32,000 bases of DNA, taken from an uncultured Actinomycetes bacterium (GTDB lineage: Bacteria > Actinomycetota > Actinomycetes > S36-B12 > CAIYMF01). Location of the stretch: NCBI GenBank assembly GCA_963843975.1, contig CAWJMG010000003.1, forward strand, positions 1,770,001-1,802,000, in the 5' to 3' direction. The first letter of the stretch is position 1. Every line of letters begins with the position of its first letter. The notes under the pieces were generated by a model. That model worked only from the letters and a program-made list of their open reading frames with translations. It searched no databases and had not been told where the DNA came from. Shown here one piece after another: positions 12,742 through 31,354 of this stretch. Made by a program: the position numbers and the translations under genes.

Positions 12742-12798
12742 AAACTCTTGTCCATCCGGCGTGAAACCAGGCCGCTTCTTTGTTCGGTGAGGACAAAC

Positions 12799-15031: not shown

Positions 15032-15223
15032 CTCCGGTTTGACCTGAATCTACAAGGGAAATCGAGCACCTGGATCGGTGCTACTGTGCAGGGGTAGGGC
15101 TGCAGCGATGATGCCGTGGCCTGCGGCGCGACCGCTTGGTCGAGCGCCCCTGGGATGTCGATCCTCCCTCCGTGAACGGCAGCACATCGGCTGCACAGAT
15201 AGACATCGCGAAAGCAGACGGCC

Positions 15224-16418: not shown

Positions 16419-17434
16419 TGCCGCGCACCCTCCAGCTCGCCCACCTCGCCCGCCTCACGACGAGGACGGGCCTCTGGGAGCACGCCCTCGGCACCGAGCC
16501 GCGGACCGAGCACGGCATGTGCGTCGACGACGTCGCGCGCGCCCTCGTGGTGACCGCACGGATCACCGCGCCGTCCGCCGACGTCGACACCATGACCCGC
16601 ACCTACCTGTCGTTCCTGCAGGCGGCGCTGCACGACGACGGCACGATGCACAACCGCCGCAACGCCGACGGCACGTGGGGCGACGACACGTCCACCCACG
16701 ACCACTGGGGTCGCGCGCTCTGGGCGTTCGGCACCGCGGCCGCGCACCTCGACGACCCGGTGCTCGCCGGCGACGCACGCATCGCCGCGGCCACCGCGAT
16801 GGGCACCCGCTCGGTGCACCCGCGGGCGATGGCCTACGCCGCAGTCGGTGCCGCGCAGCTGCTCACCGTCGCGCCCGACGACCTGCAGTCCCGCCGGATC
16901 ATGCTGGACGCGCGCCGCCTCATGCGCCCCGCCCAGGCCGACGCCGCCTGGCCGTGGCCCTGGGGGCGGCTGACCTACGCGAACGCCGTGATCCCGCAGG
17001 CCATGGTGATCATCGGCCGCCATCTCGAGGCGCACGACCTCGAGCGCGACGGCCTGCGCCTTCTCGGCTGGCTCGTCGACGAGCAGACCCTCGACGGCCA
17101 TCTGTCGATGTCCCCCGCCGCCGGCCGCGCTGCCGGCGACCACCGCCCGGCGTTCGACCAGCAGCCCATCGAGGTCGCGGCGCTCGCCGAGGCGGCTCGC
17201 ACGGCGTACGAGCTGACGGGCGAGGCCCGCTGGACCGACGTGATCGAGCAGTGCGTGCGCTGGTTCGAGGGAGACAACGACAGCTCGGCGGCCATGCGCG
17301 ACCAGGAGACCGGTGGCGGGTACGACGGGCTCGAGGACGGCGGCGTCAACCAGAACCAGGGGGCCGAGTCCACGCTGGCCTGGCTCGCGACCCTGCAGCT
17401 GTCCCAGCTCGATGCGCTGGCAGGCGTCCGATGA
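16418..17434 (+). CDS. Conserved hypothetical protein, alpha-helical; possibly a six-hairpin (alpha/alpha) glycan-binding or glycosidase-like fold
   Basis: The ATG overlaps the upstream stop (TGATG at 16416-16420) and the stop overlaps the next start (ATGA at 17431-17434), so it is translationally coupled within the glycan operon. The composition is helix-rich with repeated aromatic/acidic positions ('GLWEHA', 'HDHWGRALWAFG', 'WPWPWGRLTYANA'). The fold assignment is a guess. Confidence 0.55.
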   Translation: MPRTLQLAHLARLTTRTGLWEHALGTEPRTEHGMCVDDVARALVVTARITAPSADVDTMTRTYLSFLQAALHDDGTMHNRRNADGTWGDDTSTHDHWGRALWAFGTAAAHLDDPVLAGDARIAAATAMGTRSVHPRAMAYAAVGAAQLLTVAPDDLQSRRIMLDARRLMRPAQADAAWPWPWGRLTYANAVIPQAMVIIGRHLEAHDLERDGLRLLGWLVDEQTLDGHLSMSPAAGRAAGDHRPAFDQQPIEVAALAEAARTAYELTGEARWTDVIEQCVRWFEGDNDSSAAMRDQETGGGYDGLEDGGVNQNQGAESTLAWLATLQLSQLDALAGVR

Positions 17435-18948
17435 CGGTCACGAGCACCAGCACCTGGGTGCGGCGAACCGAGCACGTCATCCATCCGGACCACTCCCGGG
17501 TCGTCGCGCGGCTGTTCCTGCCCGGTCAGGAGATGGCAGCGCTCGGGGTGTCTCGCTCCGAGGCCGTGATCCACCGTGCCCTCGCCCTCACCGACGACGA
17601 GGTCGACGAGGAGCTGCGCGCCGTCTACGACTCGTTCGTCGGTCGGCACCGCGGCCTCCTGGCGACGTGGGAGTCGCACTTCGCCCTGCTCGAGCACCGC
17701 ATCACCGACCACGAGCCGCCCTCCCTGGCACGCCGGCGGCTGATCGGCGCGTACTTCACCCAGGAGTACTCGGTGGAGGGCGCAGCCCTGTTCAACCCGT
17801 CCATGGCGCTGCACCCGGACCAGACCGGTATGCCGGTGGGCTCGGCCCGTTTCGTGATGACCGTCCGCGCCGTCGGCGAGGGGCACATCTCGAGCATCGA
17901 GCTGCGCACCGGCACGGTGACGGCGACGGGCGAGATCACGCTCGATCCGCCACCCACCGTCGCCGTGCTCGCCAACTTCCGGCCGGCGCACTACCTGCGC
18001 AGCGCCTTCGAGAACCAGCTCGTCGACATGTGGGGCGACCGCACGAACTCGGACTTCGTCCTCGACGCGCTGCCCGAGACGTTCAGCCGTGCCGAGCTCG
18101 ACCTCGCGCTGCAGAACCTGCGCGACCAGCGCCTCACCCGTGGAGCGGCGACCAGGACCATCGAGCGTTTCGAGTGGATCGCCGGCTGCTCGTACACGGT
18201 GGAGTTCCCCCCGTCGTCCGACGCCCAGGAGCGCGTGCTGATGCCGCGCGGCCCGTCCGAGGCCAAGGGGATGGAGGACGTCCGGCTGGTCCGGTTCGCT
18301 CGTGAGGACGGCGGCTGGGACTACGTCGGCACCTACACGGCCTACGACGGCGCGCGCATCTCCACGCAGATGATCGGCACCCGCGACTTCCGCTCCTTCA
18401 CGATCACGCGCCTCTCCGGCCCCGGCTCGCGCAACAAGGGGCTCGCCCTCTTCCCCCGGAAGATCGAGGGGCGGTACGTCGCGATGTCGCGCGCCGACCG
18501 CGAGAGCAACGGCATCACGACGTCCAGCGACCTTCAGCACTGGGACGAGCCGGTGCTCGTGCAGACGCCCGAGCAGCCGTGGGAGATCGTCCAGCTCGGC
18601 AACTGCGGGCCGCCTATCGAGACCGAGGCCGGCTGGCTCGTGCTGACCCACGGCGTCGGTCCGATGCGGCAGTACGGGATCGGCGCGCTGCTGCTCGACC
18701 TCGACGACCCCACCGTGGTGCTCGGCCGCCTCATGCAGCCGCTGCTCACGCCCGACGCCGACGAGCGCGACGGCTACGTGCCGAACGTCGTGTACTCCTG
18801 CGGCGCGATGCTGCACGGGCGCACGCTCGTGCTGCCCTACGGCAGCAGCGACTCGGCAACCCGATTCGCCCTCGTCGACCTCGACCCGCTGCTCGCCGAG
18901 CTCGCGGCGCACCCCGGCCTCACCACGCCTCACGAGGACCCCCGATGA
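17431..18948 (+). CDS. GH130-family-like (DUF377, beta-mannoside phosphorylase/hydrolase family) protein with an N-terminal extension of about 270 aa of unknown function
   Basis: The C-terminal ~230 aa match the five-bladed GH130 pattern: 'GMEDVRLVRF', 'TYTAYDG', 'NKGLALFPRKIEGRYVAMSR', 'GPPIETEAGWLVLTHGVG...YGIGALLLDLDDP', 'PNVVYSCGAM...LVLPYGSSDS'. I do not recognise the N-terminal part. Confidence 0.78.
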   Translation: MTVTSTSTWVRRTEHVIHPDHSRVVARLFLPGQEMAALGVSRSEAVIHRALALTDDEVDEELRAVYDSFVGRHRGLLATWESHFALLEHRITDHEPPSLARRRLIGAYFTQEYSVEGAALFNPSMALHPDQTGMPVGSARFVMTVRAVGEGHISSIELRTGTVTATGEITLDPPPTVAVLANFRPAHYLRSAFENQLVDMWGDRTNSDFVLDALPETFSRAELDLALQNLRDQRLTRGAATRTIERFEWIAGCSYTVEFPPSSDAQERVLMPRGPSEAKGMEDVRLVRFAREDGGWDYVGTYTAYDGARISTQMIGTRDFRSFTITRLSGPGSRNKGLALFPRKIEGRYVAMSRADRESNGITTSSDLQHWDEPVLVQTPEQPWEIVQLGNCGPPIETEAGWLVLTHGVGPMRQYGIGALLLDLDDPTVVLGRLMQPLLTPDADERDGYVPNVVYSCGAMLHGRTLVLPYGSSDSATRFALVDLDPLLAELAAHPGLTTPHEDPR

Positions 18949-19403
18949 CGAACCCCACCGGGCTCCGGCCCAGCAACAACCCGTTCCTCGCACCCCCGGT
19001 CGACGCGGACGCTCCGGACGCCGAGCACCTGGTCGCGGCCCGACAGGACAAGCCCTGGGGGCACGAGATCCTGTTCGCAGACGGCAGCAACGGCTACGTC
19101 GGCAAGCTCATCCACGTCACCGCCGGACGGTCGCTGAGCCTGCAGCTGCACCACCGCAAGGACGAGACCATCAGCGTGATCAGCGGCGAGATCCAGTTCG
19201 AGGCGGGGCTCTCCGCCGCTCTGCTCGAGCGCACCACGATGATCGCGGGCGACACCGTGCACGTGCCCGCGAACGTCATCCACCGCATCACGGCTGTCAG
19301 GGACGCCGTGCTCGTCGAGGCGTCCACGGCCGGCGTCGGGTGGCAGCACGACGTCGTCCGGCTGTCCGACGACTACGGCCGCGGCGGAACCTCCGCACCC
19401 TGA
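18945..19403 (+). CDS. Cupin-domain protein (type II mannose-6-phosphate-isomerase-like cupin)
   Basis: 'KPWGHEILFA...YVGKLIHVTAGRSLSLQLHHRKDETISVISGE...GDTVHVPANVIHRI...DVVRLSDDYGR' follows the WG-x-E ... SLQ-H-x-R-x-E ... H-R ... D-x-R-x-D-DYGR pattern of that cupin family. Start overlaps the upstream stop (ATGA). Confidence 0.75.
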   Translation: MTNPTGLRPSNNPFLAPPVDADAPDAEHLVAARQDKPWGHEILFADGSNGYVGKLIHVTAGRSLSLQLHHRKDETISVISGEIQFEAGLSAALLERTTMIAGDTVHVPANVIHRITAVRDAVLVEASTAGVGWQHDVVRLSDDYGRGGTSAP

Positions 19404-19427
19404 GGCATCGGCACCTAGGGTCGTCAG

Positions 19428-20696
19428 GTGACCTACTCCGCCGAAGCAGCGACGCCGCTCACCAACTGGGCCCGCAACGTCACGTTCGCGCCGGCATCGC
19501 TGGCGCGACCCGCGTCGATCGACGAGCTGCGCGACGTCGTCGCCTCGGCCGACCGGGTGCGCGCGCTCGGCACCGGCCACTCGTTCTCGCGCGTCGCCGA
19601 CACCGACGGGGTGCTCGTGCAGCTCGACGCGCTGCCTCCCGTGCTCGACGTCGATGCGCGCACGTCGACGGTCACCGTCAGCGCCGGCACTCGGTGGGGC
19701 GAGCTCGCACCCGCCGTGCACGCGCACGGCCTCGCCCTCCACAACATGGGCTCGCTGCCGCACATCTCTGTCGCGGGGTCGGCATCGACCGGCACGCACG
19801 GCTCGGGCAGCGGGCTCGGCTGCCTCGCCACCGCCGTCCGCTCGCTCGACCTTGTGACCGCCGACGGCTCGCTCCTGACGGTCTCGCGGGGCGACGCCGA
19901 CTTCGACGGCAGCGTGGTGGCGCTCGGATCGCTCGGCGTCGTCACGTCGCTCGTGCTCGACCTCGAGCCGGCCTACGACATCGAGCAGACGGTCTGGGAC
20001 GGGCTCCCGTTCGACGTCGCCGTCGAGCGGTTCGACGACGTGATGGGGGCCGCGCACAGCGTCAGCCTGTTCACCACGTGGCGCGGCGAGGGCTTCGAGC
20101 AGGTCTGGGTGAAGCGCCGTACCGACGGTGACCCGGTGGACCTCGGCTGGACCGGAGCGCGTCCGGCGGACGGCCCGCGCCATCCCGTGCCCGGTGTCTC
20201 GACGGAGGCGTGCACCGAGCAGGGCGGTGTGAGTGGCCCGTGGTTCGAGCGGCTCCCGCACTTCCGGCTCGACTTCACGCCGAGCAGCGGGGACGAGCTC
20301 CAGACCGAGTACATGGTGCCGAGATCCCAGGCACGCGAGGCGCTCGAGGCCGTGAGCCGGATCGCGGAGGTCGTCGCCCCCGTGGTGCAGGTCAGCGAGA
20401 TCCGCACGGTCGCAGGTGACGACCTGTGGCTCAGCCCGTGCCAGGGGCGCGACACGGTCTGCATCCACTTCACCTGGGTCGACGACGCAGAGGCGGTGGC
20501 ACCGGCCGTCCTCGCGGTCGAGAGCGAGCTCGCGCCGTACGCCGCGCGACCGCACTGGGGCAAGGTGTTCAGCAGCGACCCCGCCGTCGTCCGCTCGCTC
20601 TATCCGCGCCTCGCCGCCTTCGAGGCGCTGCGCGCACGGCTCGACCCTGAAGGCGTCTTCGCGAACGCGTTCGTCGACCGCTACCTGCCGCGCTGA
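19428..20696 (+). CDS. FAD-binding oxidase of the VAO/PCMH family with an ALO-type C-terminal domain (alditol oxidase / aldonolactone oxidase-like)
   Basis: 'TNWARNVTF' N-terminus, 'RALGTGHSFS' (the His is the covalent-FAD position in this family), 'GSASTGTHGSG' and the C-terminal 'RPHWGKVF ... LDPEGVFANAF'. Confidence 0.85.
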   Translation: MTYSAEAATPLTNWARNVTFAPASLARPASIDELRDVVASADRVRALGTGHSFSRVADTDGVLVQLDALPPVLDVDARTSTVTVSAGTRWGELAPAVHAHGLALHNMGSLPHISVAGSASTGTHGSGSGLGCLATAVRSLDLVTADGSLLTVSRGDADFDGSVVALGSLGVVTSLVLDLEPAYDIEQTVWDGLPFDVAVERFDDVMGAAHSVSLFTTWRGEGFEQVWVKRRTDGDPVDLGWTGARPADGPRHPVPGVSTEACTEQGGVSGPWFERLPHFRLDFTPSSGDELQTEYMVPRSQAREALEAVSRIAEVVAPVVQVSEIRTVAGDDLWLSPCQGRDTVCIHFTWVDDAEAVAPAVLAVESELAPYAARPHWGKVFSSDPAVVRSLYPRLAAFEALRARLDPEGVFANAFVDRYLPR

Positions 20697-20713
20697 CCTA
20701 CGGCGTCAGCGCG
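20689..20713. terminator. 9-bp-stem hairpin between convergent genes, with both stop codons inside the stem arms (possible bidirectional terminator)
   Basis: CGCGCTGAC (20689-20697) and GTCAGCGCG (20705-20713) are reverse complements around the 7-nt loop CTACGGC. TGA at 20694-20696 ends the plus-strand gene and TCA at 20706-20708 ends the minus-strand gene. There are no U-tracts. Confidence 0.3.
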
Positions 20714-23043
20714 CCGCGAACGCGGTGAGGAAGCGGTCGCGGAACGACTCCATCGGCCACACCGGCGCAGACGCGCCGGGGCGCATGCCGTCCGTCCACC
20801 CCCACCCGTCGGTCCGCGCCAGCACGGCGGGGTCGCGCGTCACGATCGTGATCGGCACGTCCAGGCTCGCCCCGAGGCCGGACACCACCGTCGAGGGCTG
20901 GTGGTCGCCGAGCAGCACGAGCACGAGGTCGTCGTCGCCGTACGTCTCGACGTACTCGACGAGCACCTGCAGCGAGTAGGCGACTGAGGCGGCGTAGGCG
21001 TCGCGGATCCGCGCGGAGTCGGAGAACACCTCCTCCGGCGTCGACCCGCGCTCGGGCATGCCCTGGAACACCGAGCCGTCACCGACCTCGTCCCAGGGCA
21101 CGAGCGTGGGCAGCGGCGCCCACGGCGTGTGGCTCGAGACGAGGTCGATCTCGGCCATCACGGGCGCCCGGTCGGACGCCGCGAGCTCGAGCCGGTGCAG
21201 CGACGAGAGGACGTACTGGTCGGGCATGGGGGCATAGCTGAAACGCGGCCCGGCGTACCCGACGTTGAACTGGTCGTAGATCTGGTCGTAGCCGTAGAAC
21301 GTGGAGCCCTCGGGCCACGCCTTCTCGTTCGCCGGCGCGTCGGCCACCGTGCGCCAGCCCGCCTCGCGGAAGGCACGCGCGAGCGTGAGCCGGTCGCCGG
21401 CGATGAGGGCGTCGTAGCGCTGCTGGTTGCCCACGTGCAGGCCCGACTCGAGGGTCGCGTGGGCGAGCCAGCTGGCGCCGCCGAACGTCGAGGACGTGAG
21501 GTACGCGCTGCGCGTCGACCAGCCGCGGGCGGCGAGCGACGCCGTGCCGGAATCCAGCACGCTCAGCACCTTCTGCGAGTAGGGCGCCCCCTCCACCGCG
21601 ACGCGGCCGTAGCTCTCGACGAACGCGATGAGCACGTCCTTGCCGCGCAGACCGGCGAGCCGGTCCGCGGGTGCGACGTCGGCGAAGGCGTCGTCGGCGA
21701 CGAGGGTCGCGAAGGCGGCAGGGTCGCGCAGTCCGTCGCCGACCTCGACCACGCGCTCGCCCGCGATCTGAGTGGCACTGGCCGAGGCAACGGGCCCGGC
21801 CGGCCCGAGCTGCGACCCGACCACGGCGAGCACTACCCAGGCGGCGGCGAAGGCGAGAGCGCCGCGCCGCGACCGCACCTGGTGCCGCGACACGATGCGC
21901 GCGAGGCGCACGCAGGCCATCGGCAGGGCGATCAGCAGCACGAGGATGAGCGCCCCGACCACGGTCAGCGCGATGGTCGCCCGCTGCTGGCCCACGGCCG
22001 AGCCGAGGACGCCGACGCCCGCGCCGAGGTAGCGCCAGTCGAAGACCGGGTCGAACGGCCTGCCGAGCGCGGCGAAGAACCCCATGTCGAGCAGGCGCAC
22101 GACCGTGAGGAGGCCGAGCATCACCCCGACGACGACGGCCACGGGCGAGCGCAGCCTCGTCGGTAGCAGCAGTGCGAGCGCGACGAGCGCGACCAGCTCG
22201 AGAGGCAGTCGGAGGAAGGCGGACGCCGTGACGAGCTGGGCCTGGTCCGGCAGCAGCAGCGCCACCCACAGCAGCAGGAACGAGACGACGGTCAGCACCA
22301 CTTCCACGACGCGGTGACGGGTGCGGGGAACCACCGGGAGCGGGCCGGCCGGCTCGCGCCGGTGCCGCCACAGCCACACCACGTCGCGCCCGAACGACTC
22401 CGCCAGCAGCACGATCGCGACGACCAGCCAGCCGACCACGACCGGCTGCGGCAGGGCGGCCGTCGCGGCGACGACGAGCACGATGCCCTGGACCGCTGCG
22501 ACCACCTTGCGCCAGTACCTCGGCTGCAGCGGCCGCCGCATCCACGGCGCGAGCCACGTGGCCACGACGTACACGTAGCGGGCGAGCCCGATCACGAGGA
22601 CCCACCAGCCGACCGTGCGGCCGACGTACGCCGACAGCACGAGCAGCAGGAAGGCGTCGACCTCCATGTCGAACCGGGCGCCGAGCGTCGGAGGCGGTGC
22701 GCGTGCGGCGGGCGAGCCATCCGTCGACGGCGTCGAGCGCGAGGGCCGCGAGGGTCACGAGCACCACGGCGGAGGGCGCGACCGTCGTCGACGACGACTG
22801 CACGGTGAGGGCGACGACGCCCGCGACGAGCGAGGCACGGACGAGGGTCACGAGGTCGGCCGGCCCGAGGCGCTCGAGGCCGCGCGACCGCATCGCCCGC
22901 ACGAGAAGCGCAGCGGTCGCCACAGACACGGCGAGGCCGAGCGCCCAGGCGCGCGCGTCTATCCCCGCCACGGCGTCGAGCACGCCGAGCACCCCGGCGG
23001 AGACCACCGGTCCGGCCGCCGGGCCGAGCGGAACCCTGCGCAC
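20706..23043 (-). pseudogene. CDP-alcohol phosphatidyltransferase (N-terminal, polytopic) fused to an alkaline-phosphatase-superfamily sulfatase/LtaS-like ectodomain; split by one frameshift inside the CDP-alcohol motif (about 22682-22692)
   Basis: The signature D-G-x2-A-R-x8-G-x3-D-x3-D is divided between two frames: 'LDAVDGWLARRTRTAS' in frame 23256 and 'LGARFDMEVDAFLLLVLS' in frame 22667. The listed ORF 20706..22667 therefore starts artificially at the Met inside the motif. The C-terminal domain has AP-superfamily metal and nucleophile positions: 'LIAFVESYG', 'SSTFGGASW', 'LVSSHTPW' and 'VLLGDHQP'. Proposed start is GTG 23043, with GGAGG 6 nt upstream. Confidence 0.8.
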
Positions 23044-23119
23044 GCCGCCTCCGTTCCTGATACCAACGGGGACAACGTAGGTCGCCCCGCCCGAGAGCGC
23101 GGCAGGGCGGTGGGATTGG

Positions 23120-24110
23120 GTGGTGCCTGTGGGCGAGGAGCGGGCGTACTGGACGGCTGGCCCCGGCGTGGGCGAGATCCGGCTGGCGCACGTCCCTCTG
23201 CCCTCGTCCGACGAGGTCCGCGTGCGCACCATCGCGTCGGGCATCAGCCGCGGCACCGAGTCGCTGGTGCACCGCGGCGGCGTCCCGGAGTCGCTGCGCG
23301 CGTCGATGCGGGCGCCGTTCCAGGAGGGCGACCTCCCCGGTCCCGTGAAGTACGGCTACCTCAGCGTCGGCGTCGTCGAGGCCGGGCCGGCAGACCTCCT
23401 CGGCCGCCGAGTGTTCTGCCTGCACCCCCATCAGACGGCGTACGTCGTCCCCGCCTCCGTCGTGCACCTCGTGCCCGACGACGTCCCCTCCCGGCGCGCG
23501 GTGCTGGCCGGCACGGTCGAGACCGCGGTGAACGCCCTGTGGGACGCGGCGCCGCTCGTGGGCGACCGCGTCGCCGTCGTGGGCGCCGGGATGGTCGGGT
23601 GCGCGGTGGCACGCCTCCTCGCGCGCATCCCCGGCGTCGAGGTGACACTGGTCGACGTCGATCCCTCGCGCGCAGAGGCTGGCGGCGGCGCTCGGCATCG
23701 CCTTCGCCCTGCCCAGCGACGCACCGCGCGACCTCGACCTCGTCGTGCACGCCAGCGCGACCGGGGCGGGCCTGCAGCTCTCGCTCGACCTGCTCGCCGC
23801 CGAGGCCGAGGTGGTCGACCTCAGCTGGTACGGCGACACCCCCGTGCAGCTCTCGCTCGGCGAGGCGTTCCACCAGCGCCGGCTCGCGGTGCGCGCCAGC
23901 CAGGTGGGCACGATCGCGCGGGCGCGCGCGGGACGGCGTACCTATGCGGACCGGCTCGCCCTGGCCCTGGATCTCCTGCGCGACGACGCTTTCGACGCGC
24001 TGCTGACCGGCGAGTCGGACTTCGACGACCTGCCCGTCGTGATGCCGAAGATCGCGGACGGAAGCCTCCCCGCCATCTGCCACACCGTCACGTACGAGCG
24101 GAGCGCGTGA
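23120..24110 (+). pseudogene. Zinc-type medium-chain dehydrogenase/reductase (MDR) family protein, split by one frameshift near 23668-23680
   Basis: The N-terminal GroES-like part and Rossmann motif '[20 protein letters not shown]...[13 protein letters not shown]' are in frame 23120. The sensible continuation '[40 protein letters not shown]...' is in frame 23745 and ends at TGA 24108-24110. Confidence 0.8.
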
Positions 24111-24509
24111 TGTACAGCGTGACGGTGCGCGACCACGTGATGGTCGCCCACAGCTTCACCGGCGCCGTCTTCGGCCCGGCGCAGGCGCTGCACGGCGCGA
24201 CGTTCGTCGTCGACGCCACCTTCCGGCGCGAGGCGCTCGACGCCGACAACATCGTGGTCGACATCGGCCGCGCCACCGAGGAGCTGCACCGCCATCCTCG
24301 GCGAGCTCAACTACCGCAACCTCGACGAGGTGCCGGAGTTCGAAGGGATCAACACCAGCACGGAGTTCCTTGCCCGGGTGGTCGCCGACAGGCTGGCCGA
24401 CCGGGTTCATGCAGGCGCCCTCGGGGAAGGGGCCCGCGGTCTCGCATCGGTCGCTGTCACGCTGCACGAGTCGCACGTGGCGTGGGCCGGGTACGAGCGC
24501 GCACTGTGA
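24110..24509 (+). pseudogene. 6-pyruvoyl-tetrahydropterin synthase/QueD-like T-fold protein, non-canonical active site, split by one frameshift near 24284-24293
   Basis: '[18 protein letters not shown]...[13 protein letters not shown]...[18 protein letters not shown]' is followed, in the next frame, by '[35 protein letters not shown]...[12 protein letters not shown]'. This matches the PTPS fold pattern (xAxH ... HGH ... G-x-V-x-D ... L-D-H-x-x-L-N ... N-P-T-x-E-N-L-A), except that HGH is replaced by HGA and no Cys lies between the His motifs. The ATG at 24110 overlaps the upstream stop (TGATG). Deleting one C in 'CACCGCCATC' would restore the frame. Confidence 0.7.
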
Positions 24510-24516
24510 CGGGCAC

Positions 24517-25581
24517 GTGAGCTCCGTGCACGTCGTCGTCCCGGCGCGGATCGACGACGTGGCCCTCGTCAGCGGTGGCAACGTGTACGACCGCCGCGTC
24601 ATCGACGGTCTGCGCGCGCTCGGCGTCGACGTCCACGAGCACCACCTCGCGGGCACCTGGCCGCATCCCGGGGCGCAGGACGTGGCGGCGCTCGCCTCGC
24701 TCGTCGAGGGCGTTGAGGACGGCGGAACGCTGCTCGTCGACGGCATCATCGCCTCCGTCGCCCCCGAGGTGCTCGTGCCCGCCTCCACGCGGGTGCGGCT
24801 GGTCCCCCTCGTCCACATGCCGCTCGGCGCGGGTCTCCCCGACACGGTCGTACCGGACGCCGTACGCCGCGAGCGGGCGGTGCTGCACGCCGCGGCATCG
24901 GTCGTGGTCACCAGCACGTGGACGCGCGACCTCGTCGTCGAGCAGCACGGCGTCGACGCAGGCCGGGTCACGGTGGCCCGGCCGGGCACGGACGCCGCAC
25001 GGGTCTCCCCCGGATCGGCAGCGGGCTCGCGGTTCGTCACCGTCGGAGCAGTCAGTCGCGCGAAGGGGCACGACGTCCTCGTCGACGCCCTCGTCGCGAT
25101 CAGCGACCTCGACTGGACCTGCACGGTCGTCGGAAGCACCGGCCGCGATCCCGACCTCGTCGACGACCTGGCCAAGCAGGTGGCGCGCGCGGGCCTCGCC
25201 GACCGCGTGAGCTTCGCCGGCGTCCTCACGGGGAGTGCGCTCGACGACCTGCTCGTCGTGTCGGACCTCCTCGTGCACCCGTCCCGCGGCGAGACCTACG
25301 GCATGGTCGTCGCGGAGGCGCTCGCGCGCGGCCTCCCGGTGGTGGCGACGACGGCCGGCGGGCTGTCGACGACGCTGGGCGTGGATGCGGGCTCCCGCCC
25401 GGGAGTCCTTGTGCCACCTGGGGATCCCGACGCGTTGGCATCGGCGCTGCGCGTGTGGCTGAGCCACGACGACCTGCGCCCGGTGCTGCGCTCCCGCGCG
25501 TTCGAGCGGCGCCGCAGCCTGACCGGGTGGGATGCCACGGCGGCGGCGGTCGCGAGCGCGCTCGAGGCGGTGACCCGATGA
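24517..25581 (+). CDS. Glycosyltransferase family 4 (GT-B)
   Basis: C-terminal EX7E region '[37 protein letters not shown]'. Start at GTG 24517 or 24526, a few nt after the PTPS-like stop at 24507-24509. The upstream part of the listed ORF 24370 overlaps the previous gene. Confidence 0.8.
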
Positions 25582-26549
25582 GAGCCGTCCCGTGGGCGAA
25601 GGTCCGCGACGTGAGCGGCGTCGTGATCCTCGTGGTCGTGGTGGCGCGCGTCGGCCTCGGACCGTTCCTCGACGGCCTGCGCCAGGTCGATGTGCAGACC
25701 GTCGTCATCGCAGTGGTCGTCGCCGCGGTCACCACCACCTGCTGCGCCTGGCGCTGGCGCCTCGTCGCCCGCGGCCTCGGCATCGACGTGCCGCTCGGCG
25801 CGGGCGTCGCGGCGTACTACCGAGCCCAGCTGCTGAACTCGACCCTGCCGGGCGGCGTGCTCGGCGACGTACATCGCGGGCTCCTGCACGGCCAGGACGT
25901 CGGAGACGTGAACCGCAGCCTGCGTGCGGTCGCGTGGGAGCGTGCTGCGGGCCAGGCCGTGCAGATCACCCTCACCGTCGGCCTGCTGCTGGTGCTGCCC
26001 TCACCCGTGCGGTCGTCGGCGCCCTGGCTGGCACTGGCGCTGGTCGCGTTGGTCGTCGTGGCCGTGGTCCTCGCCCGGTCGGTCCCGGACGGCGGAACGT
26101 CCCGGGTCGGCCGCGTCGTGCGCGCGGCGCTGTCCGACGTCCGCCATGGCCTCCTGGCGCCGGGCGCGTGGCCCGGCGTGGTGCTCACCTCGGTCGTCGT
26201 CGTGGTCGGCCAGACCCTCGTGTTCGTCGTCGCGTCCCGCACCGTCGTCCCCGACGCCGATCTCGGCACCCTGGTGCCGCTCGCCCTCCTCGTCCTGCTC
26301 GCGATGGCGGTGCCGCTGTCGATCGGGGGCTGGGGGCCGCGCGAGGGCGTCGCCGCCTGGGCCTTCGGTGCGGCGGGCCTCGGAGCCGCCGCCGGAGTCA
26401 TGACCGCGGTGGTCTACGGCGTGGTGTCGTTGGCGGCGTCGCTCCCGGGCGCGGTCGTCCTGGTGCTCGACCGCCGAGCCCGGGCCTCCGTCGTACGCCG
26501 ACCGGCCACGACCGACCTCGCACCCGAGGGAGGTGCCGGCCGTGGCTGA
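25578..26549 (+). CDS. UPF0104 / lysylphosphatidylglycerol-synthase-TM-region-like ('flippase-like') integral membrane protein
   Basis: About 8 TM helices. It contains the characteristic 'RWRLVARGLG', 'YYRAQLLNSTLPGGVLGDVHRG' and C-terminal 'PLSIGGWGPREG' blocks seen in this family. The ATG overlaps the upstream stop (ATGA at 25578-25581). Confidence 0.7.
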   Translation: MRAVPWAKVRDVSGVVILVVVVARVGLGPFLDGLRQVDVQTVVIAVVVAAVTTTCCAWRWRLVARGLGIDVPLGAGVAAYYRAQLLNSTLPGGVLGDVHRGLLHGQDVGDVNRSLRAVAWERAAGQAVQITLTVGLLLVLPSPVRSSAPWLALALVALVVVAVVLARSVPDGGTSRVGRVVRAALSDVRHGLLAPGAWPGVVLTSVVVVVGQTLVFVVASRTVVPDADLGTLVPLALLVLLAMAVPLSIGGWGPREGVAAWAFGAAGLGAAAGVMTAVVYGVVSLAASLPGAVVLVLDRRARASVVRRPATTDLAPEGGAGRG

Positions 26550-27240
26550 CCGTCCGTACACCCTGCTCAGCTGCAGCGTCTCGCTCGACGGCTACCTGGA
26601 CGACGCGAGCGACCACCGGCTGCTGCTGTCGAACACCGCCGACCTCGACCGGGTCGACGCCGTGCGAGCCACCTCCGACGCGATCATGGTGGGGGCGGCG
26701 ACGGTCAGGAACGACAACCCGCGCCTCCTCGTCCGCTCGGACGCCCGCCGGGATGACCGTGCAGCCCAAGGACTTCCGGCCACACCCACGAAGGTGACCG
26801 TGACGGCCGGCGGCCGCCTCGACCCCACCGCGCACTTCTTCACGCTCGGCGAGTGCGACAAGCTCGTCTACTGCCCCGGCGACTCCGCAGCCGTCGTCGC
26901 CGCGACGCTCGGCGACTGCGCCACCGTCGTCCCGACCGCGGCCGGGGCCGACGTCGACATGGCGTGGCTGTCGGAGGACCTCGCCGCCCGGGGTGTCCGC
27001 CGCCTCATGGTCGAGGGCGGCGGCACCCTGCACACCCAGTTCCTGACGGCCGGTCTCGCCGACGAGCTCCATCTCGTCGTCGCGCCGTTCTTCGTCGGCG
27101 ACTCGCGGGCCCGACGGTTCGTCGGCGACGGCGACTTCCCGTGGACGACGGGTTCGCGGGCCACCCTGCACGACGTCTCGCGGATCGACGACCTCGTGCT
27201 GCTGCGCTACGCGCTCTCCGATCGGTTCGCGGGCGACTGA
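26533..27240 (+). CDS. RibD C-terminal-domain (DHFR-fold) reductase, diaminohydroxyphosphoribosylaminopyrimidine-reductase-like
   Basis: 'RPYTLLSCSVSLDGYL', 'DAIMVGAATVRNDNPRL', 'LMVEGGGTLHTQFLTAGLADELHLVVAPFFVG' form the canonical RibD_C pattern. The start (GTG 26533 or 26542) overlaps the upstream stop at 26547-26549. Confidence 0.8.
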   Translation: MPAVADRPYTLLSCSVSLDGYLDDASDHRLLLSNTADLDRVDAVRATSDAIMVGAATVRNDNPRLLVRSDARRDDRAAQGLPATPTKVTVTAGGRLDPTAHFFTLGECDKLVYCPGDSAAVVAATLGDCATVVPTAAGADVDMAWLSEDLAARGVRRLMVEGGGTLHTQFLTAGLADELHLVVAPFFVGDSRARRFVGDGDFPWTTGSRATLHDVSRIDDLVLLRYALSDRFAGD

Positions 27241-27273
27241 GGCCCGCTTCCACCCTCGGACCGAGTTGATCCG

Positions 27274-27289
27274 ATACCCCCGGGGGTAT
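27274..27289. promoter_or_regulatory. CsoR/CstR-type operator, copy 1: ATACCCCCGGGGGTAT (perfect 16-bp palindrome)
   Basis: Read directly from the sequence. It is one of three copies of ATACCCC-N2-GGGGTAT in the window and lies 58 nt upstream of the ATG of the Cys-rich peptide gene. A GC-rich core with AT-rich flanks is the known operator architecture of the CsoR/RcnR-family repressors. Confidence 0.6.
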
Positions 27290-27346
27290 ACCGTGAGGTC
27301 ATCACCGGCGCTCGTCGCGCCACGACACCTCGTGGAGGAACCCCCT

Positions 27347-27463
27347 ATGTGCAGCCCCGCCACCTGCTCCCGCTGCGGCAAGGTCACCTGGTCCGGCTGC
27401 GGCATGCATGTCGATCTCGTGATGGCCAACATCACCGTCGACCGCCGCTGCACCTGCCGCTGA
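27347..27463 (+). CDS. Small cysteine-rich protein (38 aa, 6 Cys), first gene of the sulfur operon
   Basis: 'MCSPATCSRCGKVTWSGCGMHVDLVMANITVDRRCTCR'. A strong GGAGGA Shine-Dalgarno lies 8 nt upstream of the ATG, and the gene sits directly downstream of operator copy 1. The function is unknown. Confidence 0.55.
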   Translation: MCSPATCSRCGKVTWSGCGMHVDLVMANITVDRRCTCR

Positions 27464-27496
27464 CCGTTCCTGCCCGACGAGACGAGACGAGACCTC

Positions 27497-28949
27497 ATGC
27501 ACCCGGCACCCGCCCTGCCCGACGTCGTCATCATCGAGACGCCGAATCTCGGGGATCGCTCGTACGTCGTCCACCTCGACGGCCTCGCCGTCGTCGTCGA
27601 CCCGCAGCGCGACCTCGACCGGGTCGAGGCCGTGCTCGCCGAGCACGGGCTCACCGTGACGCACGTCGTGGAGACCCACATCCACAACGACTACGTCTCG
27701 GGCGGTCTCGTCCTCGCGCGCCAGCTCGGTGCCGAGTACGTCGTGCCCGCCGGCTACACGCTCGCCTACGACGCCACCCAGCTCGGCGACGGCGAGAGCT
27801 TCGCCAGCGGCCGCATGGCCTGGCGCACGGTGCACACCCCGGGCCACACGCCGCAGCACCTCTCCTACGTCGTCGCGGTCGACGGCAAGGACTCAGCAGC
27901 CTTCACCGGCGGCTCGCTCCTGTTCGGGAGCGTCGGGCGCCCCGACCTCATCGGCCCGGACCACACGCACGAGCTCGCGCACGCCCAGTGGCACAGCGTC
28001 CGTCGGCTCACCACCGAGGTCGAGCCCGACGCCGCCGTGTTCCCCACCCACGGCTTCGGCTCGTTCTGCAGCGCCAGCGCCACGGTCGGCCTCGAGTCGA
28101 CCATCGGCCAGCAGGCCGCGGCCAACCCGGCGTGCACGGTCGACGAGGACGAGTTCGTCGCCGAGCTGATCGCGGGCCTGGACGCCTACCCGGCCTACTA
28201 CGCGCACATGGGCCCGGCGAACCAGGCCGGCCCCGGGCCGATCGACCTGTCCCTGCCCGAGCGGGCCGACGCCGCAGAGCTTCGCCGACGCATCGACGCC
28301 GGCGAGTGGGTCGTCGACCTCCGGTCGCGTCGCATCTTCGCCGAGGGGCACCTGCGCGGCACGCTGTCGTTCGACGGGGACGGCAACGCCGTCACCTATC
28401 TCGGCTGGGTCATCCCCTGGGGCACGCCGCTCACCCTGCTGGGCGACACCCCTGAGCGCGTCTCGGCCATGCAGCGCGAGCTCGTGCGCATCGGCATCGA
28501 CCGGCCTGCCGCCTTCAACGACGGCGCCCCCGTCGACTGGGCGCTGGACCCCTCGGACGTCACGTCGTACCGGCGGGCGGACTTCCGCGAGCCTCGACGC
28601 GGCGCTCGCCGACAACCCCGACCTCATCGTCGTCGACTCGCGACGTCGGACCGAGTGGCAGGACGGGCACGTGACCGGTGCCCGGCACGTGCCACTGCAC
28701 GAGCTCACGGCCCGGGCAGACGAGATCGCTACCTGGGCGCGCGCTGCGGCCCACGCGGGGCGCGACGCCACGGTGTGGGTGTACTGCGGCTCGGGCTTCC
28801 GCGCCTCGGCCGCCTCCTCCATCCTCGAGCGCGCCGGCCTCACCGTCGTCCACGTCGACGCGGATGTCGCCACCGCTCGAGTGATCCGCGCATGGACTCC
28901 CGCCGCGGAGGTCGTGCATGCGACCCTCGGTGCGGCCTACGCCGACTGA
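27497..28949 (+). pseudogene. Persulfide dioxygenase (MBL fold) fused to two rhodanese domains (CstB-like), split by one frameshift near 28583-28593
   Basis: MBL/PDO motifs 'ETHIHNDYVSGG' and 'VHTPGHTPQH', followed by an inactive rhodanese-like domain. After 'SYRRADF' the listed frame turns to Arg-rich junk. Frame 28671 continues sensibly with 'LDAALADNPDLIVVDSRRRTEWQDGHVTGARHVPLHEL...VWVYCGSGFRASAASSILERAG' (active-site Cys loop) and stops at TGA 28947-28949. The listed 601-aa ORF is an artefact that runs on into the next gene's frame. Confidence 0.83.
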
Positions 28950-28957
28950 GGAGTGAC

Positions 28958-29302
28958 ATGGACTCATCCGACCTGCCGACCGTCGACGCCGCCGAGGCCC
29001 TGCGCCTCGTGTGCGACGGCGCGGTCCTCCTCGACGTGCGCGAGCCGGCCGAGTGGGACGCCGGGCACGCGCCCGACGCCCAGCACGTTCCGCTCGGTGC
29101 CCTGCCGACCAGCGGCTTCGCCCCCGCCCCCGGCAGCCGCGTGCTCGTCATCTGCCGCAGCGGCAACCGCTCGAAGTCCGCGACGGCGCATCTGATCTCG
29201 CTCGGCATCGACGCTTGGAACGTCGCCGGCGGCATGGGCGCCTGGCAGGCGTCCGGCGGCGTCGTCATCGACGCGGAAGGCGCGCCGGGCCGCGTGGCCT
29301 GA
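28958..29302 (+). CDS. Single-domain rhodanese sulfurtransferase
   Basis: ATG 28958 preceded by GAGGAG. 'LLDVREPAEWDAGHAPDAQHVPLG' and the active-site loop 'VICRSGNRSKSA'. Confidence 0.85.
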   Translation: MDSSDLPTVDAAEALRLVCDGAVLLDVREPAEWDAGHAPDAQHVPLGALPTSGFAPAPGSRVLVICRSGNRSKSATAHLISLGIDAWNVAGGMGAWQASGGVVIDAEGAPGRVA

Positions 29303-29319
29303 GCGTCGTCACCCACCCC

Positions 29320-30078
29320 GTGCCCCTCCTGCTGCCGATCGCCGCCGGCCTCGCGCTCGGCGCGGTCATGGGCCTGCTCGGTGGTGGCGGCGGCGTTCTC
29401 GCGGTCCCGATGCTGCTGGCGCTCGGACTCTCGCTCGACGCGGCAGCCACGACGTCCCTGGTCGTCGTGGGGGTGGGCGCCGCAGCAGGCCTGGCCACGC
29501 ACGCCCGGAGCGGTCGCGTCGACTGGGTGATCGGGCTGATGTTCGGAGCCCTCGGCTCCGCGGGCGCCATCGCGGGGTCGCGGCTCGCGTTCGCCGTGGA
29601 CGACCGGGTGCAGCTCGCCGGCTTCGTGGTGCTGCTCGCGCTCGCGGCGTACGGCATGCTCCGTCGCCGCTCCGACGGTCCGGTGCCGGAGGACGACGGT
29701 CAGCCGCTGCCCGATCCCAACTGGGCCGTGGTCGTGCTCCTCGCCTCGGGTGTCGGGCTCGTGACCGGCTTCTTCGGCGTCGGGGGTGGCTTCATCGCCG
29801 TGCCGGCCCTGGTGCTGGCGCTGAAGATGCCGATGCGGCGTGCGAGTGCGACAGCCCTCGTCGTCATCCTCGTCAACGCGACCGTCGCGTTCCTCGCCCA
29901 CGGCACCGCGCATCTCGACGGCGGCCTCACCGCGATCGTCGCGGCCGGGACAGCGGTCGGAGCCGTGCTCGGCGCCGTGCTCCAGCCGCGGATCCCGTCG
30001 GCGGCGCTGCAGCGGACGTTCGGCGTCCTGCTGCTCGTGGTCGCGGCGTACCAGACTGCCCAGCTCGTCCTGGCCTGA
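29320..30078 (+). CDS. TauE/SafE (TSUP) family sulfite/anion exporter
   Basis: Internally duplicated membrane protein with the family's Gly-rich motifs 'GLLGGGGGVLAVPMLL' and 'GFFGVGGGFIAVPALV'. The start is uncertain: GTG 29320 is the first conventional start in frame after the upstream stop at 29300-29302. Confidence 0.78.
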   Translation: MPLLLPIAAGLALGAVMGLLGGGGGVLAVPMLLALGLSLDAAATTSLVVVGVGAAAGLATHARSGRVDWVIGLMFGALGSAGAIAGSRLAFAVDDRVQLAGFVVLLALAAYGMLRRRSDGPVPEDDGQPLPDPNWAVVVLLASGVGLVTGFFGVGGGFIAVPALVLALKMPMRRASATALVVILVNATVAFLAHGTAHLDGGLTAIVAAGTAVGAVLGAVLQPRIPSAALQRTFGVLLLVVAAYQTAQLVLA

Positions 30079-30109
30079 GCGGCTCCGGCTCCTCCCCGCC
30101 CGTCTCCGT

Positions 30110-30125
30110 ATACCCCTAGGGGTAT
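30110..30125. promoter_or_regulatory. CsoR/CstR-type operator, copy 2: ATACCCCTAGGGGTAT (perfect 16-bp palindrome)
   Basis: Read directly from the sequence. It ends 9 nt before the ATG of the TDT transporter gene. Its right half overlaps a -10-like TATGTT (30123-30128). Confidence 0.6.
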
Positions 30126-30134
30126 GTTGGCAGC

Positions 30135-31226
30135 ATGGCATCCACCACCGGTTCCACGTCGTCGACCCACCGCGTGCGCACGTGGCACCCCGGATGGATG
30201 GGAGTCGTGCTCGGCACCGGGGGCGCTGCGGTGGCGTCCCTCGTCGATCCCCTCCCCGGCACCCGAATCGACGAGGTGATCGGCGCGGCTCTCGCAGCGC
30301 TCGCGACCGTCGGCCTCCTCCTGCTCGTCCCGTACGCCGTCCGCCTGCGTCGGCACCGTGACGCCGCGTCGGCGGACCTCGGCAATCCCGGCCTGGGCGC
30401 GATGTACGGGACGGTGCCGGCGGCACTGCTGATCGTGGGTATCGCCCTGGCACTACTCGGGATCCTGGGGTGGCTGCCGGCGGGAGTCGCGTGGGTGTCC
30501 GCGGCGCTGGTGGCCTCGGGCGTCGTGCTCGCGCTCGTCGTCGGCGTCGGGTTCTTCTCCCGCGTCGTAGCGCACGAGCAGCTCCCGGTTCCCGCGATCT
30601 CCGGCGCCTGGTTCATCCCGATCGTGGTGCTCGTCCTCGTGCCGAGCGGCGTCGCCCGGTCCATCGCCCTGCAGCCGACCTGGTCGTCCACGACTGCGCT
30701 CGCGCTCGCCACCGCCGCCTGGGGCGCCGGCCTGGTCCTGTTCCTCCTGCTGGCACCCGTGATCGCGTGGCGCCTCATCACCGCACCCATACCCCCGCCG
30801 CACATGGCTGCGTCGTGGTGGATCTGGCTGGCCCCCGCGGGAGCGGGGGGCCTCGGCCTCATCGCGCTCTCACGGCTCGCCGCCACTGTCCTCGGCCAGC
30901 CCGTGGCCGGTGTCGCGCCCACCTTCGGCCTCCTCGGCGCGAGCATGCTCTGGGGATTCGCCGTGTGGTGGGCGGTGTTCGCCGGCGCCGTCGTGCGCCG
31001 GACCGCGCGCGCGCAGGGCGGCCTGCCCTTCCACCTGGGCAGCTGGGGCTTCGCGTTCCCCACCGCGGCGGTGGCCGCGCTCACGATCGAGCTCGGACAT
31101 GCTTGGGGGTCGCCGTTCCTGTCCGTCGTCGGCGCCGTCGGGTGGCTGGCGACGCTGCTCGTGTGGGGGCGGCTTGCCGCCCAGACGGTGGCCGGGGTGC
31201 GGTCCGGCGCGATCTTCACCCGCTGA
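30135..31226 (+). CDS. TDT (TehA/Mae1/SLAC1-like) family anion transporter
   Basis: The 363-aa protein has about 10 TM helices. The N-terminal 'HPGWMGVVLGTGG' and later 'SGAWFIPIV', 'WWIWLAPAG' and 'FHLGSWGFAFP' blocks are typical of the tellurite-resistance/dicarboxylate transporter family. Confidence 0.8.
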   Translation: MASTTGSTSSTHRVRTWHPGWMGVVLGTGGAAVASLVDPLPGTRIDEVIGAALAALATVGLLLLVPYAVRLRRHRDAASADLGNPGLGAMYGTVPAALLIVGIALALLGILGWLPAGVAWVSAALVASGVVLALVVGVGFFSRVVAHEQLPVPAISGAWFIPIVVLVLVPSGVARSIALQPTWSSTTALALATAAWGAGLVLFLLLAPVIAWRLITAPIPPPHMAASWWIWLAPAGAGGLGLIALSRLAATVLGQPVAGVAPTFGLLGASMLWGFAVWWAVFAGAVVRRTARAQGGLPFHLGSWGFAFPTAAVAALTIELGHAWGSPFLSVVGAVGWLATLLVWGRLAAQTVAGVRSGAIFTR

Positions 31227-31304: not shown

Positions 31305-31354
31305 GGTGATCAGAGTGCGCAGCGCCGCGCACCTTGCGTCGAGGAGCACCAGAC

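Follow-up and report, generated by a model that had tools for sequence, protein, structure and literature searches.

Pteridine glycosides of cyanobacteria are made by systems in which a gene of the PTPS family is paired with a group-1 glycosyltransferase of about 350 amino acids, a pairing that recurs in the actinomycete gene cluster described here. The cyanobacterial systems use a catalytic PTPS and, to our knowledge, comprise neither a RibD-C reductase nor a membrane module. We analysed the cluster in a stretch of 32,000 nucleotides (hereafter the window) from an uncultured Actinomycetes bacterium (GenBank assembly GCA_963843975.1, contig CAWJMG010000003.1, positions 1,770,001 to 1,802,000). 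There, five genes of the + strand at 23120-27240 encode an MDR-superfamily dehydrogenase-like protein (MDR-like), a PTPS-like T-fold protein, a GT4 glycosyltransferase, a membrane protein of the LPG_synthase_TM family (LPG_TM) and a stand-alone RibD-C reductase.

The related region of Streptomyces coelicolor, SCO6649-SCO6655, holds the PTPS homologue SCO6650 and a third RibA paralogue, SCO6655. This cluster apparently still lacks an assigned function: the structure of SCO6650 (PDB 3D7J) is still titled 'uncharacterized protein', our literature search on the SCO6648-SCO6655 region and on 3D7J found no functional study, and no curated family assigns a function. On the third S. coelicolor RibA, a 2026 riboflavin review refers to a single study, of 2006, and describes the function of this protein as "unrelated to flavin biosynthesis". 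The comparative results reported below make the pathway more testable and indicate an entry through 2,5-diamino-6-ribosylamino-4(3H)-pyrimidinone 5'-phosphate (DAROPP), followed by an archaeal-type reduction that precedes deamination. Taken as a whole, our reading is that the cluster would make a GTP-derived, glycosylated head group that is passed to a membrane flip-and-transfer module, and that the frameshifts found in the window are most likely assembly errors; we give this reading an even chance of being right.

A reduced variant of a cluster conserved across Actinomycetota

In a scan of one genome per species, relatives of the PTPS-like protein turned up in at least 344 genomes. From these, 80 loci were retrieved (loci and contigs are given L numbers below); full flanks of ±10 kb were available for 62 loci. 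The open reading frames (ORFs) of the loci were clustered, hidden Markov models (HMMs) were built from the clusters and six-frame translations were searched with them; gene families were counted in the 62 loci with full flanks. The first-pass annotation of this DNA had proposed that the five genes act together, and co-conservation bears this out: the core of MDR-like, PTPS-like, GT4 and LPG_TM genes was found in 58/62 loci and all five genes in 40/62. The loci span Streptomyces, Micromonospora, Amycolatopsis, Pseudonocardia, Pedococcus, Gaiellales and Solirubrobacteraceae. Counted one by one, MDR-like genes occur in 60/62 loci, GT4 and LPG_TM in 58/62 each, a methyltransferase in 55/62, a CDP-alcohol phosphotransferase in 52/62, a GTP cyclohydrolase II in 50/62, RibD-C in 41/62, a creatininase-fold protein in 31/62 and a membrane protein of about 550 amino acids, LtaS-like, in 24/62. 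The accessory families were borne out by Pfam.

The conserved unit is therefore larger than five genes, since the divergent fusion of CDP-alcohol phosphotransferase and LtaS-like domains that lies upstream of the MDR-like gene in the window (Table 1) belongs to the same cluster; the divergent layout of phosphotransferase and MDR-like genes was found again in most loci. These membrane partners, the methyltransferase and the frameshifts described below had been missed in the first-pass annotation, which did name a syntenic S. coelicolor set around a structurally studied PTPS homologue. Both points hold: over its full length, the PTPS-like protein of the window shares 77% identity with SCO6650 (3D7J, E = 5e-67), and the RibA-type cyclohydrolase II paralogue and the creatininase-fold protein said to accompany it are both present in Streptomyces loci. 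Neither had been seen in the window, and neither they nor the methyltransferase left any trace in its 32 kb by tblastn and HMM searches. The close relatives L082-L086 share this reduced form without the accessory genes, and so do a few further loci (e.g. L036, L064 and L077). As a member of the SCO6649-SCO6655-type cluster, which is conserved across Actinomycetota, the locus represents a reduced form.

The four junctions of the operon are as tight as had been annotated. The MDR-like and PTPS-like genes join at TGATG (24108-24112), GT4 and LPG_TM at ATGA (25578-25581), and the LPG_TM stop (26547-26549) overlaps the GTG starts of RibD-C at 26533/26542. Between the PTPS-like stop (TGA, 24507-24509) and the GTG start of GT4 at 24517 the positions given earlier were right, while the spacer measures 7 nt instead of 8. 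What does not stand is the continuity of the first two genes, neither of which is an uninterrupted ORF. No sigma-70 consensus was found in the divergent region 23044-23119, and scans of the window for Rfam families, tRNAs, sigma-70 promoters and terminators gave no matches.

Frame breaks in three of the six cluster genes

At about 72% G+C, mechanical ORFs are uninformative in the window, and third-position GC (GC3) frame plots were used instead. The + strand appeared as coding across the whole of 23120-27240, with jumps of the coding frame by +1 at ~23677 in the MDR-like gene and at ~24286 in the PTPS-like gene, neither accompanied by a stop-start signal; the plots alone place the two jumps within ~23600-23700 and ~24200-24300. 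The ORF list agrees with these plots, as the frame that opens at 23120 loses its coding signal while staying open to 24520 and the C-terminal parts of both genes lie in another frame. When intact homologues were used as tblastn queries, the MDR-like gene, the PTPS-like gene and the upstream - strand gene were each split across two frames. Alignment to L082, a metagenome contig with 91% identical DNA, located one extra G at ~23677 (GAG-G-CTG) and another at ~24286 (GAGCT-G-CACC), and one extra base breaks the phosphotransferase part of the upstream fusion at ~22686-22689. Three of the six cluster genes in the window are frameshifted: the phosphotransferase::LtaS-like fusion, the MDR-like and the PTPS-like gene.

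These breaks are not confined to the cluster. We counted at least six in the window (~22686-22689, ~23677, ~24286, ~15850, ~28585 and ~28935), five of the six being +1 insertions; the one at ~15850 falls in an unrelated second GT4 gene and those at ~28585 and ~28935 in an MBL-rhodanese gene. With about one frame error per 5 kb, the gene calls of the window need correction before use. Once the single bases are removed, the MDR-like and PTPS-like proteins are ~95-98% identical to intact relatives. Intact PTPS-like relatives of 132 amino acids exist at 93-98% identity, and in close relatives with 91-95% identical DNA all five genes are intact, keep their order and are packed as tightly. Downstream of the MDR break, synonymous codon differences outnumber non-synonymous ones by 15 to 4 in comparison with L082 and by 22 to 7 with L085, and no secondary stops or indels are seen; judging from these counts, purifying selection is still evident there, with no sign of decay.

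The breaks could also be real +1 insertions that inactivated the MDR-like, PTPS-like and phosphotransferase::LtaS-like genes, leaving a pseudogenised remnant of a pathway that this lineage has lost. Such a loss would account for a frameshift in each of three adjacent genes of one pathway within 1.6 kb, in a lineage where methyltransferase, cyclohydrolase and creatininase genes are already missing from the cluster; moreover, among 5.8 billion proteins no intact allele identical to that of this strain was found, the best match being 98% identical. The damage to unrelated genes, the predominance of +1 insertions, the selection that persists beyond the MDR break, the intact state of GT4, LPG_TM and RibD-C and that of the same genes in close relatives all argue the other way, and we regard true pseudogenisation as doubtful. 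An indel error of the assembly is probably the cause of the frameshifts, as far as sequence comparison can tell.

Other metagenome-assembled copies of the cluster (L017, P0242) are similarly fragmented. P0242, a protein of 578 amino acids from a public metagenome-assembled genome (NCBI/ENA), had been considered as Rosetta-stone evidence in the form of a PTPS-GT4 fusion; it was rejected as a frameshift artefact, the end of its PTPS part and its own C-terminus both being Arg-rich out-of-frame sequence. Two Logan contigs of run ERR12037365 cover parts of the window. L087 matches 18762-20564 perfectly and L001 matches 24351-28218 (3.87 kb) with a codon indel at 27067 as the sole difference; the frame-break sites fall outside both. 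At the indel, L001 (2717-2719) carries one extra GAC codon in RibD-C (GLADE-D-LHL), which suggests either a variant strain or a difference in consensus.

Covariation points to DAROPP as the probable entry metabolite

Spoonamore et al. reportedly observed in 2006 that the enzyme does not proceed beyond the formylated intermediate when the tyrosine equivalent to Tyr105 of E. coli RibA is lost. The cluster cyclohydrolases fall into two types at this position. In 23 loci the tyrosine is present, and none of these has the creatininase-fold gene (0/23); in 37 loci it is replaced by Met, His, Gln or Leu, and the creatininase-fold gene is there in 36/37, the exception being a truncated contig (Fisher p = 1e-15). 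A creatininase-fold protein that takes off the formyl group, the role of ArfB in archaea, would be expected to leave this pattern, with DAROPP as the outcome in every variant. On these grounds DAROPP would be the common entry metabolite of the cluster variants.

The soluble proteins stay below curated family cutoffs

Domain calls were made from Pfam, from curated NCBIfam models and from PDB searches. The domains assigned to the PTPS-like, GT4, LPG_TM and RibD-C proteins in the first-pass annotation were confirmed by Pfam and that of the MDR-like protein less firmly, while none of the five operon proteins reached a curated NCBIfam cutoff. The MDR-like protein scores 25.5 bits with ADH_zinc_N, below the cutoff of 31.8, and matches BchC at 4e-11. 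Its relatives in the PDB are L-iditol, sorbitol and threonine dehydrogenases, and from inspection of its sequence it appears to be devoid of zinc ligands.

The PTPS-like protein belongs to the Pfam PTPS family (1.5e-22, 80 bits) and stays far below the models of the characterised enzymes, with 36.3 bits against a cutoff of 89.25 for QueD (TIGR03367) and 17 bits against 125.5 for TIGR00039. In a profile alignment to rat PTPS (1B66), Ala24 stands in place of the catalytic Cys, Ala30 in place of the second His in the zinc motif HGH, and Asn67-Tyr68 in place of the Asp-His dyad. Across 80 species, 69/132 positions of the family are at least 95% conserved, Ala24, Ala30 and Tyr68 among them. By sequence, then, this is not a canonical PTPS/QueD orthologue. 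The GT4 protein lies above the gathering score of Pfam (Glyco_trans_1_4, 5.6e-27, 95.2 bits; Glycos_transf_1, 88.8 bits), and its best NCBIfam models, MshA and EpsE, remain far under cutoff (80 bits vs 462 for MshA). Its sequence is found unchanged on the independent Logan contig L001; the nearest GT4 from a named organism, Intrasporangium oryzae, is 55% identical.

The RibD-C protein (Pfam RibD_C, 3.6e-37, 128.5 bits) is a stand-alone protein of 235 amino acids without a fused deaminase domain. Its best NCBIfam model is that of the archaeal DAROPP reductase (TIGR01508), at 129.9 bits against an equivalog cutoff of 186.45, and the bacterial model eubact_ribD gives 73.5 bits against 156. The best PDB match is the Rib7-like protein of M. 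mazei (5XUX), and the DAROPP reductase 6P8C was also matched. The specificity site of these enzymes is a Lys in bacterial RibD, which acts on AROPP, a Thr in yeast Rib7, which acts on DAROPP, and an Asn in archaea (PMC3631187). In the window it is a Ser (LLSCSVSLDG) where bacteria have Lys (EcRibD K152 / BsRibG K151); in the alignment this Ser faces the Asn that M. mazei Rib7 has as an archaeal enzyme, and the TV..D.P and VEGGG motifs (NADPH/catalytic) are aligned as well. Among 52 cluster RibD-C proteins, 38 including that of the window have Ser and 14 have Gln, while Lys occurs in none. The enzyme is not of the bacterial RibD type and is predicted to work like Rib7/ArfC, its score falling short of membership in that family. 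With the PTPS-like and RibD-C proteins both under the QueD and RibD cutoffs and their key residues replaced, neither is a canonical orthologue, and the first-pass interpretation stands on this point.

In the Amycolatopsis loci L004, L005, L011, L014, L019, L020 and L032, an IMPase/HisN-like phosphatase and a second GT4 lie downstream of the creatininase gene, and no RibD-C is found within 10 kb. A gene of these clusters (c11) was examined as an alternative reductase and rejected, as it is the IMPase/HisN-like phosphatase.

A putative flip-and-transfer module

LPG_TM is a clear member of the LPG_synthase_TM family (Pfam PF03706, 1e-30, 107.8 bits vs a cutoff of 33.4). It has 323 amino acids with several hydrophobic segments in hydropathy plots and consists of the transmembrane (TM) domain only, without the C-terminal aminoacyl-phosphatidylglycerol synthase domain. 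NCBI, ENA and Logan all contain this exact protein; a PDB search with its single sequence gave no match. In the divergent gene, the CDP-alcohol phosphotransferase motif DxxDGxxAR...GxxxDxxxD can be read across the frame break as LDAVDGWLARR...LGARFDMEVD, and the homologue in L029 scores 38.7 bits with Pfam PF01066. The best relative of this domain is archaetidylinositol-phosphate synthase, which has a polyol-phosphate acceptor. Besides the window, at least 7 loci, isolate genomes included, have it fused to the LtaS-like domain.

In hydropathy plots of the LtaS-like protein, a soluble domain of about 365 amino acids comes after five hydrophobic segments. As a single sequence it matched nothing in the PDB or NCBIfam, and its Pfam Sulfatase score of 22.9 bits is under the family cutoff of 25. 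Searched as a family profile against the PDB, it gave a single match, the lipoteichoic-acid primase LtaP (4UOP, E = 5.6e-6), in whose alignment the metal-binding Glu (E248), the nucleophilic Thr (T291) and D485-H486 are conserved.

A glycosyltransferase, a flippase-like protein, a CDP-alcohol phosphotransferase and an LtaS-like protein together resemble the machinery of lipoteichoic acids and glycolipids. The product might then be an envelope glycolipid or a polymer like lipoteichoic acid (LTA) without any GTP-derived part, the T-fold and RibD-C proteins acting on sugar phosphates, and the IMPase-like phosphatase of the Amycolatopsis clusters would fit such a product. A GTP cyclohydrolase II paralogue in 50/62 loci, with an active-site type that covaries with the creatininase-fold gene, is difficult to reconcile with it, as are the T-fold and RibD-C families, which are pterin and pyrimidine binders; we consider a GTP-free product very unlikely.

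Conversely, the GTP-derived part could be real and the lipid part not. The product would then be a soluble or exported pterin or pyrimidine glycoside, like the pteridine glycosides of cyanobacteria, exported by LPG_TM, with the phosphotransferase and LtaS-like genes as mere neighbours. This would agree with the translational coupling of GT4 and LPG_TM to the PTPS-like and RibD-C genes and with the 38/62 neighbourhoods that have no LtaS-like gene. The CDP-alcohol phosphotransferase gene, however, is divergent and adjoins the MDR-like gene in most loci (52/62), across several taxonomic orders, which speaks against chance proximity and makes a purely soluble product unlikely in our eyes. If the phosphotransferase, flippase-like and LtaS-like proteins do form one membrane module, the product is to be sought in lipid or envelope fractions rather than in the culture supernatant.

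A proposed pathway

We propose that GTP cyclohydrolase II, encoded outside the window in this genome, supplies DAROPP. In other genomes the entry enzyme would be the cluster paralogue, either of the Tyr type alone or of the non-Tyr type together with the creatininase-fold deformylase, as the covariation suggests. RibD-C would then reduce DAROPP to its ribityl form, in the manner of archaeal and fungal Rib7 and in line with its closest relatives and its non-Lys specificity residue. The two zinc-less proteins, MDR-like and PTPS-like, may remodel the ribityl side chain while the 2-amino-4-oxopyrimidine ring is kept, the cluster having no deaminase; more speculatively still, oxidation at C2' could recreate the Amadori intermediate of GTP cyclohydrolase I, and closure could then yield a dihydroneopterin-like pterin. 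GT4 would add a sugar. From domain logic and the gene fusion, the CDP-alcohol phosphotransferase is expected to join the product to a phospholipid phosphate; LPG_TM, related to MprF, would flip it, and the fused LtaS-like domain would pass the phospho-head group on to an external acceptor.

The first steps of this scheme mirror the chemistry of archaeal riboflavin and F420 synthesis, and the Amadori step of GTP cyclohydrolase I would in effect be imitated by a net reduction with subsequent oxidation at C2'. The cluster might for this reason be taken for a back-up route to a cofactor precursor, be it the ribityl-pyrimidine of riboflavin and F420 or the dihydroneopterin of folate, with the membrane genes unrelated to it. 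It has no deaminase, lumazine synthase or folate genes, its GT4 is linked to the membrane protein by a stop-start overlap, and the third S. coelicolor RibA is treated as unrelated to flavin synthesis in the 2026 review; a back-up route appears highly improbable, and the least probable of the explanations we considered.

Several observations weigh against the proposed pathway of a glycosylated head group handed to the membrane module. Every step after DAROPP is deduced from sequence. The cyclohydrolases that carry the covariation form only about three clades, and few independent evolutionary events thus lie behind it; the creatininase-fold protein scores 141 bits with MftE and 37 bits with archaeal ArfB, the former being the closer relative. 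Rv2671 (PDB 4XRB), which reduces dihydrofolate, is also among the matches of RibD-C, so that a pterin, and not a ribosylamine, might be what the cluster enzyme reduces. Within ±10 kb, 21/62 loci have no RibD-C and 38/62 no LtaS-like gene, and neither is strictly obligatory in cis. Finally, three frameshifts in three adjacent cluster genes within 1.6 kb are also the pattern expected of a real loss of the pathway.

The first-pass annotation had suggested a glycosylated, membrane-associated or exported product resembling a pterin or pyrimidine. Co-conservation and the non-canonical character of the proteins support this interpretation, the nature of the product itself being deduced. In its fullest form, the proposed pathway would add to hundreds of actinomycete species an undescribed component of the membrane or envelope, with a glycosylated 2,5-diaminopyrimidine or pterin head group derived by archaeal-style GTP chemistry, attached by the CDP-alcohol phosphotransferase, flipped by the MprF-like protein and transferred by the LtaS-like domain. 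We put this forward as a tentative possibility. If true, it would link cofactor-type pyrimidine or pterin chemistry to the actinomycete cell envelope and amount to a lipid or wall modification of a new, cofactor-derived class.

Neighbouring sequence

Just downstream of the operon, at ~27274-27289, lies a perfect palindrome, ATACCCCCGGGGGTAT, which resembles operators of the CsoR/CstR type. It is followed by a conserved Cys-rich ORF of 38 amino acids (27348-27464, MCSPATCSRCGKVTWSGCGMH...); the same small gene was called in L001 and L082. The next 3.76 kb (27470-31226) are absent from L082 and carry genes for an MBL-fold/rhodanese protein, a TauE sulfite exporter (29305-30078) and a SLAC1/TehA-type channel (30198-31226); a Pyr_redox_2 (SQR-like) gene starts at 31334. 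This segment and the SQR-like gene together have the look of an island for sulfide detoxification, the insertion lying between the small Cys-rich ORF and the oxidoreductase. The MBL-rhodanese ORF (27467-29302) stays open throughout, with its middle rhodanese domain (~28585-28935) in another frame; the two breaks form a +1/-1 pair, and the whole domain is out of frame and appears as Arg-rich nonsense in the called protein.

Upstream of the cluster, 13967-20696 holds a second group of glycan-related genes (Table 1). Further upstream, a long ORF of the - strand (7319-9838) seems, as judged by eye, to combine an alpha/beta-hydrolase-like N-terminal part with a C-terminal ABC-transporter ATPase part (LGPNGAGKTT motif).

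Table 1. Position of the cluster genes and of their upstream neighbours in the window
Feature	Position	Strand	Remarks
PucR-type regulator	12787-14013		
GT4	13967-15046	-	
Second GT4	15224-16418		frameshift ~15850
339-aa protein without assigned family	between second GT4 and GH130-like gene		
GH130 mannoside phosphorylase-like gene	17458-18948		
Cupin/mannose-6-P isomerase-like gene	18945-19403		
FAD/ALO-type oxidase	19428-20696		convergent with LtaS-like gene
CDP-alcohol phosphotransferase fused to LtaS-like (5 TM + sulfatase-fold) transferase, putative	20706-23043	-	~777 aa after correction; tblastn matches in frames -3 and -1
Intergenic region between divergent genes	23044-23119		76 bp; presumed bidirectional promoter
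MDR-superfamily dehydrogenase-like gene	23120-24110	+	extra G ~23677; start possibly GTG at 23129; tblastn matches in frames 2 and 3
SCO6650-type PTPS-like T-fold protein	24110-24509	+	132 aa after correction; extra G ~24286
GT4 (GT-B fold) glycosyltransferase	24517-25581	+	intact; relatives use alternative start 24526
LPG_synthase_TM / UPF0104 (MprF flippase-domain family) stand-alone membrane protein	25578-26549	+	start overlaps GT4 stop
Stand-alone RibD-C pyrimidine reductase, archaeal/fungal type, predicted	26533-27240	+	start 26533 or 26542

Comparison with known systems

The closest counterpart is the S. coelicolor cluster SCO6649-SCO6655. Besides the 77% identity of the PTPS homologues, the order MDR-PTPS-GT4-(methyltransferase)-LPG_TM is the same in Streptomyces loci, where RibD-C, creatininase and GTP cyclohydrolase II genes adjoin. 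The window differs in lacking the methyltransferase, creatininase and cyclohydrolase genes, in the fusion of its CDP-alcohol phosphotransferase to an LtaS-like domain and in its three frameshifted genes. Moreover, RibD-C of Streptomyces is an N-terminally extended protein of the Gln type, whereas that of the window is short, of the Ser type and encoded on the same strand.

The archaeal and fungal steps towards riboflavin and F420 (ArfA, ArfB, Rib7/ArfC) share with the proposed pathway a formylated intermediate with its deformylase, followed by reduction before deamination. The closest relatives of RibD-C are the archaeal reductases, and the creatininase gene covaries with the type of cyclohydrolase. 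In contrast to archaeal ArfA, a GTP cyclohydrolase III, the cluster cyclohydrolase has the RibA (II) fold; the kinship of the creatininase-fold protein with ArfB is distant, at 37 bits, and the cluster has neither a deaminase nor a lumazine or riboflavin synthase. As for the T-fold lyases proper, PTPS and QueD, the window protein shares their Pfam fold and seemingly keeps two of the three His positions that bind zinc, but it has Ala for Cys42, Ala for His50 and Asn-Tyr for Asp88-His89.

The membrane module, which would work in the manner of PgsA/MprF/LtaS, is best compared with machinery of the LTA and MprF type, in which a head-group synthase dependent on CDP-diacylglycerol, an MprF flippase domain and an LtaS/LtaP transferase represent the same three domain families as in the cluster. 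The LtaS-like domain has the catalytic set of Glu, Thr and Asp-His and the layout of five TM segments with an external domain. The similarity in sequence is remote (Sulfatase under cutoff, 4UOP at 5.6e-6), and the cluster has no aminoacyl-phosphatidylglycerol synthase domain. Unlike any described LTA or MprF system, its module is tied to enzymes of pyrimidine and pterin chemistry.

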